From Gammaproteobacteria bacterium (GTDB lineage: Bacteria > Pseudomonadota > Gammaproteobacteria > Xanthomonadales > Marinicellaceae), in assembly GCA_030430025.1 (NCBI GenBank), contig JAUIGR010000010.1, positions 1,797 through 65,796 of the forward strand: a DNA stretch of 64,000 nucleotides, given 5' to 3'. A program made the translations under genes and the position numbers. The notes below the pieces were generated by a model. The model was not told where the DNA came from, ran no database searches, and was given only the letters and a program-made list of their open reading frames with translations. Below, one piece after another: positions 915-63,983 of the stretch (its first letter is position 1; each line of letters starts with the position of its first letter).

Positions 915-1083
915 TGATGCTCCATTGACATGACCCCCTCCCTTTTTGCACAAGATAACACGCCAGAAGACAAATTTGTACTTATTTATTTAACTAAACT
1001 TAAATAATGCCAATTATTTTAAAGACCCAAATCGTCTCACTTAATACCTAAAAGGTGAGACAAATATTGTTTATCTTGCCCGC

Positions 1084-1164
1084 ATGAGTAAGAAAACATA
1101 CCAATTTGAAGTCTTGAGGACCGGTGAATTTACTGATGCCAATGGCAGAATAGAGGTGCCTTAA
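1084..1164 (+). pseudogene. 26-codon fragment resembling the N-terminus of a Mu-like phage protease/scaffold protein
   Basis: MSKKTYQFEVLRTGEFTDANGRIEVP*; recalled resemblance to the FEIFRAGTHTDxxG start of such proteins. Confidence 0.3.
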
Positions 1165-1497
1165 ATTTATAAAGTTGTTTGAACATCAACAGACCACCCA
1201 TTAAACGGATGGGTCTGGCTGGGTGGGCTTTTTCGCTGTAAAAGGGCTACTTATTCAAGATGTTGCCAATCAAGTTCGCAAGACAAGGCTATCAAAGGAT
1301 GTGATTGATCCAACTGGGAGGTGATGTCAAAAAAGGAGTTTTGTGGTGTTTGATCCGGTGTTTACTGCGCATTTAATTGATGATTTCGACCGATAAGTAA
1401 CAACTATTTTAACAATTCCAGTCGAAATACTACAGTAGAAAATCAATATATCTATTATATATCAATATGTTATAAGTTTATCAGGGTTGACTAATTA

Positions 1498-1803
1498 GTC
1501 GAACCTGATAAATGCATAATTTATTGTTAAATATACAGAGTTACTTCAATTTTGGATATTTTTTCGACCAGGAAACAGGTGTCACGATGCATTTTTATTC
1601 GCCGCTTCCATTCGGCTCTCAGGCTAACGTGAAAAAGTTTTCCAGAAACTTTTTTATGGTTGATGGTGTGGCACAGGGAGGTGCCACCTTGAGCCATCAG
1701 GCTCAAGTAAGGTCAAAAAACATCAGCAAAATCACACTTTTGCGCTTAAGTGTTTTTTTGACCGATGCTGGAAAAGGCCAGGAAGGACTTTTTCAGGATT
1801 GAC
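1498..1803 (+). mobile_element. MITE-like repeat, full-length copy (306 bp)
   Basis: TA|GTCGAACCTGATAAA ... TTTTCAGGATTGAC|TA imperfect terminal inverted repeats; TA on both sides; colinear with 41155-41459. Confidence 0.85.
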
Positions 1804-1874
1804 TAATTATTTCAAAAATCATCGGTGTGTTCATCAGGAGATGATATAGATCAAAGTCTCTTTTACTTGTGATA

Positions 1875-41137: not shown

Positions 41138-41154
41138 GAAAGAAGGAGTAAGTA

Positions 41155-41459
41155 GTCAGTCCTGAAAAAGTCCCTCCTGGCCTTTTTCAGCATCGGTCAA
41201 AAAACACTTAACCACAAAAGTGTGATTTTGCTGATGTTTTTTGACCTTACTTGAGCCTTACGGCTCAAGGTGGCACCTCCTTGTGCCACACCATCGACCA
41301 GAAAAAAGTTTCTGGAAAACTTTTTCACGTTAGCCTGAGAGCCGTATGGAAGCGGCGAATCAAAAAGCATTGAAACACTTGTTTTCTGGTCGGGAAACAT
41401 ATGACTTGTAAGAAAAATTATTTTGTACAACAATAACTTATGCTTTTTTCAAGTTCGAC
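41155..41459 (-). mobile_element. MITE-like repeat, full-length copy (305 bp), reverse orientation
   Basis: TA|GTCAGTCCTGAAAAAG ... TCAAGTTCGAC|TA; colinear with 1498-1803. Confidence 0.85.
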
Positions 41460-41466
41460 TAAATAC

Positions 41467-44664: not shown

Positions 44665-44702
44665 AACTGTTTCCGTTGTCATAAGTTTAAACGAGAGGCG
44701 CG

Positions 44703-44730
44703 ATTATATAGATCACCCTTTAACTTGTAA
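44703..44730 (-). promoter_or_regulatory. Sigma70 promoter of rpmE2
   Basis: TTTACA-16-TATAAT followed by a GC-rich discriminator (CGCGCC). Confidence 0.6.
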
Positions 44731-44741
44731 AGAACTAATTA

Positions 44742-44902
44742 GTCAGTCCTGAAAAAGTCCCTCCTGGCCTTTTTCAGTATCGGTCAAAAAACACTTGACC
44801 ATAAAAGTGCTATTTTGCTGATGTTTTCTGGTCGAAAAAGTGCACAAGATTGAAGTAACTCTTCATACTTAACAATAGAGTTATGCTTTTTTCAGGTTCG
44901 AC
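44742..44902 (-). mobile_element. MITE-like repeat, internally deleted copy (161 bp)
   Basis: Both ends intact with flanking TA; ~145 bp lost between two TGTTTT microhomologies. Confidence 0.85.
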
Positions 44903-45417
44903 TAATTAATGTCAATTTCTCCAATATCTACATCAAAACGATCCATCAGGCTGCCAAGGTCTTTAAGCAATATTTTGCCGCCGATTTTAATGACAATCAA
45001 TTCTGATTCATCTTCTAATGAAACCACCGACAAGCCTTTCATGGTTTGTTCGTCCATTTCTGCCAGAATATAAACGGTGGTGTCTTCTTCTCTGATTGCG
45101 GCCAATTGTTGAAACCCAGCTGCTTTGAGTGACTTTGCGGTGTTGCCAACCCAGGTTTTAAGTGCATTGATATCGCCATCAAATCCTTCATCTAATTCGT
45201 AAACTCGAACCACAATTTCATTCAAGTTTTTCATGACGTTAGATATTTCGTCTTCAGATTTAGACATGCCACTGAGTAGCCCGAGCATTCCTGCACCTAA
45301 ATTGACCTCAACATTTGGTTCGCTTTTGACAATTTGACTGAGCATGCCCATGATATCTTGTGCTTTAGTATATGGCGATAAAACCAGCAAAAGCGTTATA
45401 AAGGTTATTTTTTTCAT
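44902..45417 (-). CDS. DUF4252-family secreted protein
   Basis: Signal peptide; VEVNLGAGML, IVVRVYE, VVIKIGGKI-like C-terminus; third gene of an ECF cluster. Confidence 0.75.
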   Translation of the reverse strand: MKKITFITLLLVLSPYTKAQDIMGMLSQIVKSEPNVEVNLGAGMLGLLSGMSKSEDEISNVMKNLNEIVVRVYELDEGFDGDINALKTWVGNTAKSLKAAGFQQLAAIREEDTTVYILAEMDEQTMKGLSVVSLEDESELIVIKIGGKILLKDLGSLMDRFDVDIGEIDIN

Positions 45418-52606: not shown

Positions 52607-53908
52607 ATGAAAAAAATACTTTGTTTACTTTCCGTTTTTTATTTAGGCATTTCATGGGGGTCTCAGTATTACAAGACAGAGACCACAACCATGGATTATC
52701 AAGATATCGATGACATGGTTGATCGTGTGATGCTTTTTGATGGCAATGAGGGTTACTATGATGACCTATCAGCTGAAATAGAGTTACCCTTCCCGTTTCT
52801 TTTTTATGGGCAAGAATATAACAGCCTGCGCGTTAGTACCAATGGTTATTTGGTTTTTCCTGATGATCAACCTGGTGATTACATGGGCAACGATCCCTTA
52901 CCTAGTACAGACGAACCCGATGGTATCATTGCTGTCTTTTGGGATGATTTAATAGTTCAAGATGAAGGGACAACAGATCAAATATCATATGTTGTTCAAG
53001 GTGAAGCACCTAATCGAGTCTTGATTGTTGATTATCGTTCAGTGAGTTTTTTTAGCCCTAGCGGTTACATTTATTCACAAGTTAAATTATTTGAGGGAGG
53101 TCATGTCATAGAATTCCATTATGATAATAGTTATCCCGATATAGTAGCTAATGCATCAGCCACCATTGGTCTTGAACATCCTTGTGGTTGTCTTGCCGAT
53201 CCAGGGCCTAATGCAGATAATACAAATAGCACTACGCCTAATGAAGCTTATCGCTTTAGTCCGGTTTATTATACCCGCAGTGAAATTGATATGGATTACA
53301 TAACCACGATGAACATGCCTGGAAGGGAGATACTTTTTAATGGCGGTGTGGGTTCCTATGATGATGATGAAGCTGAGATCAATCTACCATTCACATTTGA
53401 GTTTTATGGAACAGCTTATGACAGCCTGCGGGTAAGTACCAATGGTTATTTGGTCTTCCCTGAGGGTGAAATAGGCACTGACTTTGGCAATGATTCATTA
53501 CCTAATACAGGAGGCCCCAATGGCATTATTGCAGTCTTTTGGGATGATTTAAAAGTTAGGCAAAATGATGGTTATATCGATCAAATCTCATATGTTGTTC
53601 AAGGACAGGCGCCCAACCGAGTGTTGATTATTGATTATCAGTCGATAGGATCTTTGAGTAATGGCGATGATAATATATGGGCTCAGGTTAAGCTATATGA
53701 AAGCAGTTATATTATAGAACTTCATTATCAAGAAGATTTGAGTGATACAGATTCTGGTGGAGTCGACGCCACTATGGGTCTGGAGCATCCTTGTGGTTGT
53801 CTTGCTGAACCAGGTCCTAATTACGACAATGACAATGACGTAATACCGATGGTTGCCTATCGCTACACACCTAACGATTTAATTTTTATGAATGGCTTCA
53901 ATGACTGA
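52607..53908 (+). CDS. Secreted protein with two tandem nidogen-like domains and DLIFMNGFND tail
   Basis: Signal peptide; twice LPF-x-F-x-FYG-x-x-Y-x-SLRVSTNGYL ... IAVFWDDL ... GLEHPCGCLA. Confidence 0.85.
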   Translation: MKKILCLLSVFYLGISWGSQYYKTETTTMDYQDIDDMVDRVMLFDGNEGYYDDLSAEIELPFPFLFYGQEYNSLRVSTNGYLVFPDDQPGDYMGNDPLPSTDEPDGIIAVFWDDLIVQDEGTTDQISYVVQGEAPNRVLIVDYRSVSFFSPSGYIYSQVKLFEGGHVIEFHYDNSYPDIVANASATIGLEHPCGCLADPGPNADNTNSTTPNEAYRFSPVYYTRSEIDMDYITTMNMPGREILFNGGVGSYDDDEAEINLPFTFEFYGTAYDSLRVSTNGYLVFPEGEIGTDFGNDSLPNTGGPNGIIAVFWDDLKVRQNDGYIDQISYVVQGQAPNRVLIIDYQSIGSLSNGDDNIWAQVKLYESSYIIELHYQEDLSDTDSGGVDATMGLEHPCGCLAEPGPNYDNDNDVIPMVAYRYTPNDLIFMNGFND

Positions 53909-53969: not shown

Positions 53970-54026
53970 TCAGCTTCATACTTTCACAGTGGATAACCTG
54001 ATTACCGGCGTCATTGTCTATACTTA

Positions 54027-54080
54027 GTCAATCCTGAAAAAGTCCTTCCTGGCCTTTTTCAGATTCAGTTTAAAAACACT
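54027..54080 (-). mobile_element. MITE end fragment
   Basis: TA|GTCAATCCTGAAAAAGTCCTTCCTGGCCTTTTTCAG matches the right end of 1498-1803. Confidence 0.75.
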
Positions 54081-59218: not shown

Positions 59219-60583
59219 TTATAAGACCTCAGGCTCATCAAAGCCATCCATAAAGATCAAATCAGAACCAAAAAATGGAAAATATGAGGGTACATAGCGG
59301 TATCCTTTCTGAGGTACAACGTCATTGTCATTATTGTAGTTAGGTCCTGGCTCGGCAATACAGCCACAAGGGTGTTCCAGACCAATGGTGGCGTTTGTAT
59401 AACCATCATCTGTATCACTGAGGAAGCTACTATAATGAAATTCAATCACATTAGACCCTTCGTACAATTTGGCTTGAGCCCAGAGATGGTCATCAGTAGG
59501 ACCATTTCCGTCGGCACGAATTTGTACTGATCTATAATCAACAATTAAAACGCGATTAGGCGCCTCACCTTGAACAACATATGATATTTGATCAGTGCCT
59601 CCTGCATTTTGAGCGACCTGCAGATCATCCCAAAAGACAGCAATGATGCCATCGGGGTGTTGAGCACTGGGTAATGAGTTGTTGTCATACTCGTTGCTTG
59701 TTTCACCATCAGGAAAGACCAGATATCCATTGGTGCTGACACGTAGGTTTTGATACGCCTTGCCATAGAACTTAAATGAGAAAGGTAATTCTATTTCAGC
59801 TGAGGTATCATCATAAGTATTCTCACTGCCATCAAAAAGCATCATCCGACCAGCCACGCCATCCATATCTTGGTAGTCTAAGTTAATTTCACTGCGGTCA
59901 TAATATTGCGGCGGAGTGTATCGATACGCTACATCAGGCACAGTATCGTTGTCATTATTGTAGTTAGGCCCTGGCTCGGCAATACAGCCACAAGGATGCT
60001 CCAGACCAATGGTGGCGTTTGTATAACCATCATTTGTATCACTGAGGAAGCTATTATAATGAAATTCAATCACATGAGACCCTTCGTACAATTTGGCTTG
60101 AGCCCAGATAAGATCATTAGTAGGATTTCCCTCGGCACGAATTTCTACTGATCGATAATCAACGATCAAAACACGATTAGGCGCCTCACCTTGAACAACA
60201 TATGAAATCTGATCTACAATTCCACCATTTGGACCTACCTCGAGATCATCCCAAAAAACAGCAATGATGCCATTGGGGCCTTGTGGATTAGGTAATGAGT
60301 CATTGTCATACTCAGTGGCTGATTGATTGAGGAAGACCAGGTAACCATTGGTACTGACACGCAGGTTGTTATATTCTTGCCCATAAAAAAGAAATGGGAA
60401 GGGTAACTCTATTTCAGCTTCCTCATCATCATAAGTATCTATACTACCATCAAAAAGCATCGCCCGACCAGCCACGCCAGCCAAGTCTTGATAATCCATG
60501 GGGATCACTTCACGTTGATAGTCATCACCACCAAAAGCAAGGGCAGTATATAAGAGGGCTATAACACAATATATTTTTTTCAT
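59219..60583 (-). CDS. Paralogue of 52607-53908: two nidogen-like domains, DLIFMDGFD tail
   Basis: Same domain motifs twice including GLEHPCGCIAEPGPN; signal peptide. Confidence 0.87.
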   Translation of the reverse strand: MKKIYCVIALLYTALAFGGDDYQREVIPMDYQDLAGVAGRAMLFDGSIDTYDDEEAEIELPFPFLFYGQEYNNLRVSTNGYLVFLNQSATEYDNDSLPNPQGPNGIIAVFWDDLEVGPNGGIVDQISYVVQGEAPNRVLIVDYRSVEIRAEGNPTNDLIWAQAKLYEGSHVIEFHYNSFLSDTNDGYTNATIGLEHPCGCIAEPGPNYNNDNDTVPDVAYRYTPPQYYDRSEINLDYQDMDGVAGRMMLFDGSENTYDDTSAEIELPFSFKFYGKAYQNLRVSTNGYLVFPDGETSNEYDNNSLPSAQHPDGIIAVFWDDLQVAQNAGGTDQISYVVQGEAPNRVLIVDYRSVQIRADGNGPTDDHLWAQAKLYEGSNVIEFHYSSFLSDTDDGYTNATIGLEHPCGCIAEPGPNYNNDNDVVPQKGYRYVPSYFPFFGSDLIFMDGFDEPEVL

Positions 60584-60746: not shown

Positions 60747-60847
60747 GAATAAAAATGCATAGTGGCATCTGTTTTCTGGTCGAAAGAATGTGTAAAATGA
60801 AAAAATTCTCATGTTTAACAATAAGTTATGCATTTTTCAGATTCGAC
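60747..60847 (-). mobile_element. MITE end fragment (~100 bp)
   Basis: GAATAAAAATGCAT ... TTCTGGTCGAAA ... TTATGCATTTTTCAGATTCGAC|TA matches the left third of the element. Confidence 0.75.
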
Positions 60848-60856
60848 TAATTACAT

Positions 60857-61711: not shown

Positions 61712-62167
61712 TTACATGTTTTTCATTAATGAATACAGGCGATGAAATACCCCTTTCCCTCTGAAATTTTCGACACCAAAGCATACATTCTTGGAAATGA
61801 TGCCACATAAGCCACCAACAATATTTCCCAAAGTACTTAAATTTGAATAGAAAGCTGATAGAACACCCATTCCTAAAAGACCTCCGATAATGAATCCAGA
61901 AAATGGTATTCTTACCAGAACAGTCAATGGACTGCTCGATGCGCCAAAAAAAATCATAGCGAAAGCCAATCCTGCGATCATTCCAGGGAAAAGCCCAATG
62001 GCTATTGCAGCTGGAAAAGTGAGTAAAAAATACAGCAGTATAGCAATTTCACCACGAAGCATTTCCTTTACGATAAAATAAACGGCTGGCATGATAGGTC
62101 CGATAAAAGAAAATATGATGATTGTTTTTGTAAAACCTTCAAACTGTGAGTAATTCAACTCTTTCAT
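61712..62167 (-). CDS. Hypothetical membrane protein
   Basis: Four Gly-rich hydrophobic segments. Confidence 0.6.
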   Translation of the reverse strand: MKELNYSQFEGFTKTIIIFSFIGPIMPAVYFIVKEMLRGEIAILLYFLLTFPAAIAIGLFPGMIAGLAFAMIFFGASSSPLTVLVRIPFSGFIIGGLLGMGVLSAFYSNLSTLGNIVGGLCGIISKNVCFGVENFRGKGVFHRLYSLMKNM

Positions 62168-62169
62168 AT

Positions 62170-62267
62170 TCGGTCAAACGCAGTTAATCGCAAAAGTGTG
62201 ATTTTGCTGATGTTTTTTTGACCTCATTTGAGCCTGACGGTTCAAGGTGGTACTTCCATGTGCCACA
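62170..62267 (-). mobile_element. MITE internal fragment
   Basis: TCGGTCAAA ... TTTGAGCCTGACGGTTCAAG GTGGTAC ... GTGCCAC matches the central hairpins. Confidence 0.75.
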
Positions 62268-62412
62268 GCAAAGTAATGGGATTAAAAGTATTTTTTTCAT
62301 TTTTTAATCTCTTGGTTAGTTAAATTTAAAAATTTGCCAGGCCATGTTGTTGAACATAACCTGGCTACTAATATCCAACCATCTGTATTAAAATGATAGG
62401 ATATTGCATCCT

Positions 62413-63165: not shown

Positions 63166-63207
63166 TTGAATCGCCAATGAAATTTGTATATAATTGGACA
63201 TATATGT
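63166..63207 (+). promoter_or_regulatory. Sigma70 promoter and palindromic operator of vapBC
   Basis: TTGAAT-17-TATAAT (63166-63194); perfect palindrome ACATATATGT at 63198-63207. Confidence 0.65.
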
Positions 63208-63224
63208 GTTTAATGGAGTTTAGA

Positions 63225-63455
63225 ATGGGTCAGGTTACAATCTACTTAGAAGATGACATTGAGAGGAAGATGAAAGATGCTGCAAAGTCAGCCAGACTTT
63301 CAAAAAGTAAATGGATTGCAAGGCTTATTAAAGAACAAGTATCTAATGAGTGGCCTCAGTCTGTTATAGATATGGCAGGTTCTTGGAATGACTTCCCCAC
63401 TATAAGTGAAATTAGGGAAAACGAAGGGAATGATATTGAGCGAGAGAAACTGTGA
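63225..63455 (+). CDS. vapB: RHH/CopG-type antitoxin
   Basis: ATG 63225 with GGAG RBS; QVTIYL strand, SKSKWIARL helix; stop overlaps the toxin start. Confidence 0.82.
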   Translation: MGQVTIYLEDDIERKMKDAAKSARLSKSKWIARLIKEQVSNEWPQSVIDMAGSWNDFPTISEIRENEGNDIEREKL

Positions 63456-63871
63456 TGTTTGTGCTTGATACCAATACATTAATCTATTTTTTCAAAGGCA
63501 TGGGCAATGTTTCAAAAAACTTTCTTGAGGTACAACCCAAGAATATAGCTATTCCATCGGTAGTTCTTTATGAATTAAAGTATGGCATAGCAAAATCTAA
63601 CTCTCCTCAAAAGCGCAATAAGCAATTAATGGAATTGTGCTCTTTAGTTGAAACCCTACCGTTTGGTGATAGTGCAGCTCAAGTATCTGCATCAATCAGA
63701 GCCAGCCTCGAAAAGCAGGGTACACCTATTGGTCCTCTTGATGTCTTAATTGCAGGAACAACAATAGCTAATAAGGGCATATTAGTTACTAACAATACAA
63801 AGGAGTTTTCAAGAATACCAAATTTGAGGTTGGATAATTGGTACATTACTCCAATCCCTAGTCCAACCTAA
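63452..63871 (+). CDS. vapC: PIN-domain toxin
   Basis: LDTN, VVLYELKYG, GPLDVLIAG, VTNNTKEF. Confidence 0.93.
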   Translation: MMFVLDTNTLIYFFKGMGNVSKNFLEVQPKNIAIPSVVLYELKYGIAKSNSPQKRNKQLMELCSLVETLPFGDSAAQVSASIRASLEKQGTPIGPLDVLIAGTTIANKGILVTNNTKEFSRIPNLRLDNWYITPIPSPT

Positions 63872-63924
63872 CTCCAATAAGAAGAATGATAAACCTCGAG
63901 TCAAATATACTCAATCAGCTCAAA

Positions 63925-63983
63925 ATTAATTAGTCGAATCTGAAAAAGTCCATGCTGACCTTTTTCAGATTCGACTAATTAAT
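63925..63983. mobile_element. 43-bp hairpin form of the MITE within a perfect 24-bp inverted repeat
   Basis: ATTAATTAGTCGAATCTGAAAAAG-TCCATGCTGAC-CTTTTTCAGATTCGACTAATTAAT. Confidence 0.8.

Follow-up and report, generated by a model that had tools for sequence, protein, structure and literature searches.

The stretch of DNA analysed here, referred to as the window, is 64 kb long and carries nine copies or relics (43-306 bp) of one short repeat, as tallied by blastn together with an end-motif search. The host is an uncultured marine Marinicella. The genes flanking the repeats are gammaproteobacterial; the citrate synthase shares 91% identity with the Marinicella rhabdoformis enzyme, and the named matches that follow it all come from Marinicella. 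An earlier note on this DNA had listed most of these repeats as a MITE family, and a blastn search of 1496-1805 against the window recovered every copy listed there except a relic at 2697, so that two full copies, one deleted copy, one hairpin form and three fragments can be taken as real.

The first full-length copy (c1) lies on the plus strand at 1498-1803 and is 306 bp long, running from GTC to GAC, with the left end GTCGAACCTGATAAA and the right end TTTTTCAGGATTGAC. Its left 6-bp flank, TAATTA at 1492-1497, is also the flank of an insertion sequence (IS) remnant's end, and the direct repeat TAATTA follows on the right at 1804-1809; many metagenome contigs match c1 as far as 1492 and 1809/1810. 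The second full-length copy (c2; 41155-41459, minus strand, 305 bp) is flanked by TAAGTA (41149-41154) and TAAATA (41460-41465), and its blastn match (41153-41461, minus) is 86.6% identical to c1 over the full length (E 7e-102). The third copy (c3; 44742-44902, minus strand, 161 bp) lacks c1 positions 83-218 and has TAATTA at 44736-44741 and 44903-44908; in its blastn match (44740-44904, minus), query positions 1-82 are joined to 219-310, which indicates an internal deletion.

Three fragments, all on the minus strand, represent different parts of the element. The right-end fragment (54027-54080; c1 positions 254-306) lies upstream of rdgC next to TACTTA at 54021-54026, and was found as a blastn match at 54025-54080 to query positions 254-310 (E 6e-14). 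The left-end fragment (60747-60847; c1 positions 1-103) has TAATTA at 60848-60853 and a match at 60747-60849 to query positions 1-105 (E 3e-24). The internal fragment (62170-62270; c1 positions 169-270, the same span as its blastn match, E 2e-27) is without ends, and several of its stems are broken. The smallest copy is a 43-bp mini-element (63933-63975), in which both terminal repeats stand back to back (GTCGAATCTGAAAAAG...CTTTTTCAGATTCGAC) between TAATTA at 63927-63932 and at 63976-63981; a blastn match at 63931-63977 covers both of its arms. A possible degenerate mini-element lies at 2697-2724. It gave no match when the element was searched against the window by blastn, but its right arm, ATTTTCCAGGACTGAC (2709-2724), differs from the end motif at two positions, and it is plausibly a MITE relic.

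Searches with two end motifs (up to 3 mismatches) gave 12 and 17 matches in the window, where 1.4 and 5.2 were expected, and none of 100 shuffles reached such counts. All intact ends read TA|GTC...GAC|TA, just as the earlier note described them. Its description of the copies as intergenic also holds: they face either way, are found in intergenic regions of every kind and all lie between open reading frames (ORFs), with two near-overlaps. In one of these the GAC of c3, together with the adjoining TA, supplies the TAG stop codon of an ORF on the minus strand (44902-45417); in the other the fragment at 62170 begins 3 bp from the ATG of a minus-strand ORF (61712-62167). The c3 copy takes up most of the spacer (44682-44902) between a DUF4252 gene and rpmE2 (L31 type B), which is 220 bp long in the window and about 70 bp in relatives. 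The 43-bp mini-element sits 62 bp downstream of a vapBC-like toxin-antitoxin pair (VapC NF047863, E 1.6e-39), and pair and mini-element together span 63177-63975.

Structure, folding and coding capacity

A full copy measures about 305 bp. Its terminal inverted repeats, about 17-21 bp long, are imperfect (GTCRAnYCTGAWAAA...); they are accompanied by a left subterminal stretch that varies, a core rich in hairpins and a hairpin at the right end. Within copies, 13-16 of the first 17 nucleotides are complementary, and in the 43-bp form 16 of 16. The left subterminal 40-45 nt differ almost wholly between copies (1540-1585 compared with 41375-41420, 44822-44870 and 60765-60810), and such a divergent stretch beside a remainder that is about 95% identical points to subfamilies or to a mosaic origin. 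The right 45 nt or so form a hairpin that resembles a second, inward-facing copy of the end, and a similar inner palindrome can be read off the sequence at the right ends of full ISs. An internal motif, GGCTAACGTGAAAAA, is kept in both full copies (1622-1636 and 41321-41335) and is three mismatches away from the terminal repeat; it could be an inner transposase-binding site, or it could be chance. The core matches none of the ISs examined, among which the resident IS is known only from its left part, and the interior of the MITE is best read as cargo whose origin was not traced to any of them. The family varies in length, as many metagenome contigs have lost 54-195 bp internally.

Stable folding raises the question of whether these repeats are structured RNA or regulatory modules of the host (an sRNA, a terminator or a REP-like unit) kept by selection, and not selfish DNA. 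The predicted folds of both full copies are chains of hairpins far more stable than those of shuffled sequences (z -5.4 and -4.4), and c1 and c2 agree at about 95% of positions in the core (c1 positions 100-270) but diverge in the left subterminal part, both of which speak for a host function. A stable foldback is, however, a generic property of MITEs (PMC3184786), and the three copies compared show 0 compensatory changes and 7 broken pairs, with a positive covariation term. No Rfam family matches the window at gathering score, the best sub-threshold match having an E value of 0.15 and 20.7 bits where 46.4 are needed, and no consistent promoter or terminator was found in the copies. The core, moreover, is absent from c3 and from many metagenome variants, and the copies stand in either orientation in spacers of all kinds. 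We therefore consider a host function very improbable. Even closer to negligible is the chance that the element carries a real small gene. A 96-aa ORF (1512-1802) does span nearly all of c1, and a 67-aa ORF is open in the same frame in c2, but the frame is destroyed in c3 and the 96-aa product has no Pfam match. Among 1.84 billion representative proteins it has only four short matches, all of them ORFs of other copies with deletions or frame changes; a fifth match, to a 2835-aa protein, was set aside as a repeat-inflated chance match. The element is a MITE without a conserved ORF and encodes nothing. As the earlier note had proposed, it is non-autonomous; it has inverted repeats at its termini and lacks conserved coding capacity.

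Ends, resident insertion sequence and target sites

The relationships of the ends were examined with a degenerate 21-nt right-end pattern, which matches five of the five right ends in the window and was scanned against one genome per GTDB species. The 28 loci found are of two kinds, namely complete ISs and short gene-less elements. The complete ISs with the element's right end are about 1.5 kb long and occur in metagenome-assembled genomes (MAGs) of Bacteroidia, Acidobacteria and Verrucomicrobia. For example, the IS at locus L027 comprises 1502 bp between GTCGCCCCTGAAAAAGTC and GGACTTTTTCAGGATCGAC, and its 453-aa ORF is identified as NF033578 transpos_IS5_1, 'IS5 family transposase' (NCBIfam, E 3.5e-128), with the Pfam domains DUF772 and DDE_Tnp_1. 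A tblastn search of PLSDB with this transposase found 478 plasmids, all annotated as IS5 family. Four plasmid ISs that were retrieved have the same termini as the MITE: those of Sulfurospirillum pSDCE1 (end TAGTCGCCCCTGAAAAA), Trichlorobacter lovleyi pGLOV01 (ISGlo4, end TAGTCGTCCCTGAA), a Neptuniibacter plasmid and Leptospira interrogans pLiSL42 (end TAGTCGTCCCTGAAAAA); a Chondrinema copy has the related end TAGTCGCTCCTTA. A GTCG-N3-CCTGAA core is common to the MITE, ISGlo4 and three other plasmid ISs. The MITE termini (GTCRAnYCTGAAAAA) belong to the IS5-family clade NF033578 that includes ISGlo4, and not to IS630/Tc1. The earlier note had taken a match to a known IS end as a point against a new family; the ends do match a known IS clade, but the MITE family itself matches nothing in the libraries searched. 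A search of the literature on ISGlo4 and on Marinicella insertion sequences found nothing relevant.

A decayed and truncated IS5-family insertion sequence (1079-1491, minus strand) abuts c1. It consists of a left end, GTCAACCCTGATAAACTTATAAC, read from 1491 downwards, a leader of about 113 nt and a pseudogene of the transposase N-terminus (1361-1079) with one frameshift and one stop codon; the spacing from end to transposase, about 113 nt, compares with 118 nt in the IS at L027. In a tblastn search of the window with IS5-family transposases, 1361-1254 and 1234-1079 (minus) matched residues 6-41 and 51-101 of the L032 protein (joint E 2e-6), and residues 50-86 of the L027 protein also matched the remnant (E 2e-4). 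A 75-aa fragment obtained by reading through the remnant matches annotated IS5-family transposases in a 7.3-Gb plasmid collection (E 4e-10, 4e-8 and 3e-7), and gave no match in Pfam. The first 40 nt or so of the remnant are 76% identical to the left end of the MITE, and the remnant's end (1456-1491) and c1 share the TAATTA at 1492-1497. The statement in the earlier note that the window contains no transposase is thus right for intact genes only, the pseudogene and its end at 1456-1491 having been overlooked.

In a biofloc metagenome run (X1), a 936-nt contig at depth 148 and several smaller ones are 86% identical to 1255-1429, and a related IS is present there at roughly 20 copies per genome-equivalent. 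A protein-guided JGI scan for close relatives of the remnant found none. The copy in the window is a pseudogene, and a complete transposase gene was not recovered for this organism, although one is presumably encoded elsewhere in it. The 454-aa ORF at 59219-60583, whose start is 165 bp from the fragment at 60747-60847 and 264 bp from the terminal repeat of that fragment (60847), was considered as a transposase and rejected, as it is NIDO-like. Two such NIDO-like ORFs (52607-53908 and 59219-60583; PF06119, E ~1e-7) are found in the window, each beside a MITE relic, and neither is present at the orthologous loci of relatives, where msrA and rdgC are adjacent (L043) and cca is followed by an HD_4 gene (L042); they may be insertions bordered by MITE ends.

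For the target site, inward-facing ends were paired at all loci and the six bases outside GTC...GAC were compared. The flanks are mostly TANNTA and usually the same on both sides, with identical hexamers in 13 of the 20 element or IS pairs. TAATTA occurs on both sides of c1, c3, the 43-bp form and three MAG elements; the palindromic hexamer flanks three of the four complete copies in the window, where direct and inverted repeats cannot be told apart. Among non-palindromic pairs, 7 of 14 are identical, a number that none of 100,000 permutation trials reached (p<1e-5). These are TAAGTA, TATCTA, TATGTA and TATTTA at MITEs and TATTTA, TACCCA and TAACTA at three complete ISs. The flanks of c2 agree in five of six bases (TAAGTA/TAAATA). 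As exceptions, the flanks are inverted at L003 and L023 and unlike at L026, L033 and L020. Duplications of 4 bp (YTAR/CTAG) and of 3 bp were considered and rejected, since the flanks do not fit them; L003 alone fits CTAG.

Filled and empty sites could be compared in two cases. For an IS, L. kirschneri pLiSL20 reads ...AATAT TAACTA ACGTGAG... where L. interrogans pLiSL42 has TAACTA-[1478-bp IS]-TAACTA. For the MITE itself there is one precise empty site, that of c3, at which the relatives read G/CAATTA and not TAATTA: the window has GACAT TAATTA [161 bp] TAATTA GTTCTTTACAAG, the closest relative (L038, Logan SRR24075711) GAACT GAATTA ATGCTTTACAAG, and M. rhabdoformis (L037) GATAT CAATTA ACGCTTTACAG. 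With the 161-bp element and one hexamer taken out, the window is collinear with both relatives without any gap. Because of the non-palindromic direct repeats and the two empty sites, the duplication, reckoned against the GTC...GAC boundaries, is 6 bp, TANNTA, most often TAATTA. Duplications of 2-9 bp have been reported for the IS5 family (PMC4596501), so that 6 bp falls within its known range. The empty sites that the earlier note had called for thus exist at the c3 locus in two relatives, each with one hexamer and not with a single TA. TAATTA occurs 29 times in the window; 11 occurrences are not fully inside ORFs, and 6 of these 11 flank element ends. Such a distribution agrees with a hexamer that, having stop codons on both strands, would be rare inside genes and would direct insertions to gene ends and spacers.

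Identity of the element and mode of mobilisation

The element has the features by which a bacterial MITE can be tested, that is, inverted repeats, a flank duplication, a small, multi-copy and gene-less form, and filled versus empty sites. Very probably it is an IS5-derived MITE family that has been inserted at TANNTA by an IS5-clade transposase acting in trans. In this model, the MITE ends and about 40 nt at the left would derive from an IS of the NF033578/ISGlo4-like clade, and the cognate IS would be an IS5-family element with GTCRA..CTGAAAAA ends. The DDE transposase of that IS, supplied in trans, presumably binds the MITE ends and would insert the element into TANNTA hexamers, preferably TAATTA, so that the hexamer stands on either side of it. 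Further rounds of transposition, together with decay and internal deletion (as far as the 43-bp form with its two ends), would then have given rise to a few hundred copies and relics, nearly all of them intergenic. Mobilisation in trans by that transposase is an inference.

Two other accounts of how the element moves need to be weighed against this model. The earlier note had attributed it to an IS630/Tc1-mariner-type transposase that duplicates only TA, as for Correia, ERIC and RUP. The TA|GTC...GAC|TA found at every end would suit such a transposase, and ERIC-type elements carry 5'-TA-3' at both termini (PMC3184786). With duplication of TA alone, however, the empty sites of both the IS and c3 should be 4 bp longer than they are, and the direct hexamers would need a tandem (TANN)2TA in the target for each of seven independent non-palindromic pairs. 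The element's termini match IS5-family elements, and the decayed transposase with such an end that adjoins c1 is also of the IS5 family. No IS630-like gene was found among the window ORFs scanned, which are part of all ORFs, and the ORFs beside the copies have no transposase domains. The duplication of TA alone is therefore contradicted, and an IS630/Tc1 parentage is hardly credible. Less easily dismissed, yet still unlikely, is a variant with the same element and partner in which the termini are TA-GTC...GAC-TA and a 2-bp staggered cut within TA-NN-TA duplicates only NN. Its filled and empty sequences would be identical to those left by a 6-bp duplication, the TA beside GTC and GAC is nearly invariant across phyla, and the reported IS5-family range begins at 2 bp (PMC4596501). 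Against it, the Neptuniibacter IS has TACCCA on both sides, so that CA stands next to GTC and is repeated on the right, which is explained more simply as a target duplication.

Abundance, comparison with known systems and significance

Two biofloc metagenome runs contain the window almost word for word (0.96 of sampled words), and two aquatic runs contain part of it. In biofloc run X1, the summed contig depth is 1600-2900 on the element and 6-9 on its unique flanks, 353 contigs match a 3-kb stretch that contains c1, and the depth is likewise high at c2 and c3. In the source metagenome the element thus reaches about 200-340 times the depth of the genome, or roughly 200-340 copy-equivalents per genome assuming that the copies belong to this population, a figure that is an assembler depth in a mixed community and not a closed-genome count. 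This agrees with the high genome-wide abundance that the earlier note had expected. In aquatic run X3, where a related strain is thinly represented, the element is at about 50 times its flanks; in this and the other thin related-strain metagenome (X4), contigs are short and shallow at candidate empty sites. A Logan contig (ERR3428543_74772, L001) joins the YiiD-like gene (1875-2324) to rdgC (from 54165) through the MITE right end that the two loci share (1768-1805 and 54025-54080), and is either a chimera of the de Bruijn graph or a real inversion between inverted copies.

Five orthologous Marinicella loci of 21 kb each (105 kb in all) contain no copy or end, which upholds the lineage restriction suggested in the earlier note. 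They represent M. rhabdoformis, the uncultured relative closest to this organism, and three contigs whose citrate synthase is 86% identical. The element is absent from the spacers orthologous to those of c2 and c1, which are too diverged for the exact site to be placed. No Marinicella was among the matches of the right-end pattern in the scan of one genome per GTDB species; a left-end pattern that matches four of the four left ends in the window gave 0 matches in a JGI metagenome scan, and a blastn search of the element against all PLSDB plasmids gave no match. The expansion is specific to this species or its immediate relatives.

The nearest known systems are the ISs of the NF033578 clade, that is, ISGlo4 and the Leptospira, Sulfurospirillum, Neptuniibacter and Chondrinema plasmid copies. 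They have the same terminus, (TA)GTCG-NNN-CCTGAAAAA, and have the TANNTA 6-bp flanking repeat and the right-end inner palindrome in common with the MITE. These ISs are 1.47-1.53 kb long and encode a 436-456-aa DDE transposase, whereas the MITE is at most 306 bp long and has no gene and a core without detectable similarity to them. The IS5-related MITEs of Porphyromonas gingivalis (BrickBuilt, MITE239, MITEPgRS/464 and MITE700) likewise combine the terminal repeats of resident IS5 elements with unrelated interiors and occur in variable or partial copies (PMC4596501). They differ in their terminal repeats (GAGACC... and ACGTGAGTTCGA), belong to another IS5 subgroup, contain internal minisatellites and have a much lower copy number (PMC4596501).

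Correia (Neisseria), ERIC (Enterobacteriaceae) and RUP (S. pneumoniae) resemble the Marinicella element in size class, intergenic location, TA beside the termini and a stable foldback. Its copy number is in the range of Correia and ERIC, for which more than 120 copies and 30-711 copies, depending on the species, have been reported (PMC10969869). In contrast to them, it duplicates 6 bp and not TA alone, its ends are IS5-family ends and not those of the partners proposed for these elements, and there is no sequence similarity. Chunjie of Geobacter uraniireducens and QMITE1/2 of Coxiella burnetii are likewise AT-rich, have terminal repeats about 21 bp long and predicted folds of high stability, and also occur in many truncated or partial sizes down to about 40 bp (PMC3184786; PMC10969869). 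The direct repeats are 9 bp for Chunjie and 7-9 bp for QMITE2, against 6 bp here, in a comparison made by description and not by sequence.

The short gene-less elements found with the right-end pattern come from a Bdellovibrionales MAG (JAPPLY01, 56-330 bp) and a Chlamydiae MAG (OY969110, about 145-160 bp). Their termini and their TANNTA flanks, often TAATTA, are those of the Marinicella MITE, and their interiors are unrelated to it; both are multi-copy (L003-L015, L023 and L024 in JAPPLY01; L007, L011, L021 and L026 in OY969110). They appear to be independent births of MITEs from the same IS clade in other phyla. A far-reaching reading, which we regard as improbable, is that the ISGlo4-like IS5 branch might be a cross-phylum integrator specific for TANNTA (preferably TAATTA) that has independently spawned high-copy MITEs in Gammaproteobacteria, Bdellovibrionota and Chlamydiota, and that the hairpin core in Marinicella, which is unusually well conserved, might not be plain cargo and might have been taken over by the host, perhaps as a regulatory module at gene ends that acts at the RNA level or through DNA structure. 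As a separate observation, about 30 records of Leptospira plasmids contain a MITE-like repeat of about 150 bp with the ends (TA)ACGTGAGTTCGACGTAAGAAA (L035, 1865-2012; L036, about 420-660), which resemble the ISPg3/MITE239 ends of P. gingivalis. The pLiSL42 IS5-family element is inserted at the edge of this repeat, which in L. kirschneri contains a tandem expansion of about 40 bp.

The MITE described here is a new family of an ordinary kind of element in a little-studied genus, and it leaves the current understanding of MITEs unchanged. With its family and target duplication corrected to IS5 and a hexamer, it accounts for most intergenic repeats and for the assembly breaks in the genome of this Marinicella, and Logan contigs end or cross over at its copies. 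A few hundred copies amount to a load in the range of heavily colonised bacterial genomes, such as those of Photorhabdus with ERIC and Neisseria with Correia. The strict preference for TAATTA makes insertion sites predictable, and may serve strain typing or, if the transposase is recovered, a site-selective transposon. The family is also a clean example of how one IS clade gives rise to unrelated MITEs in several phyla.
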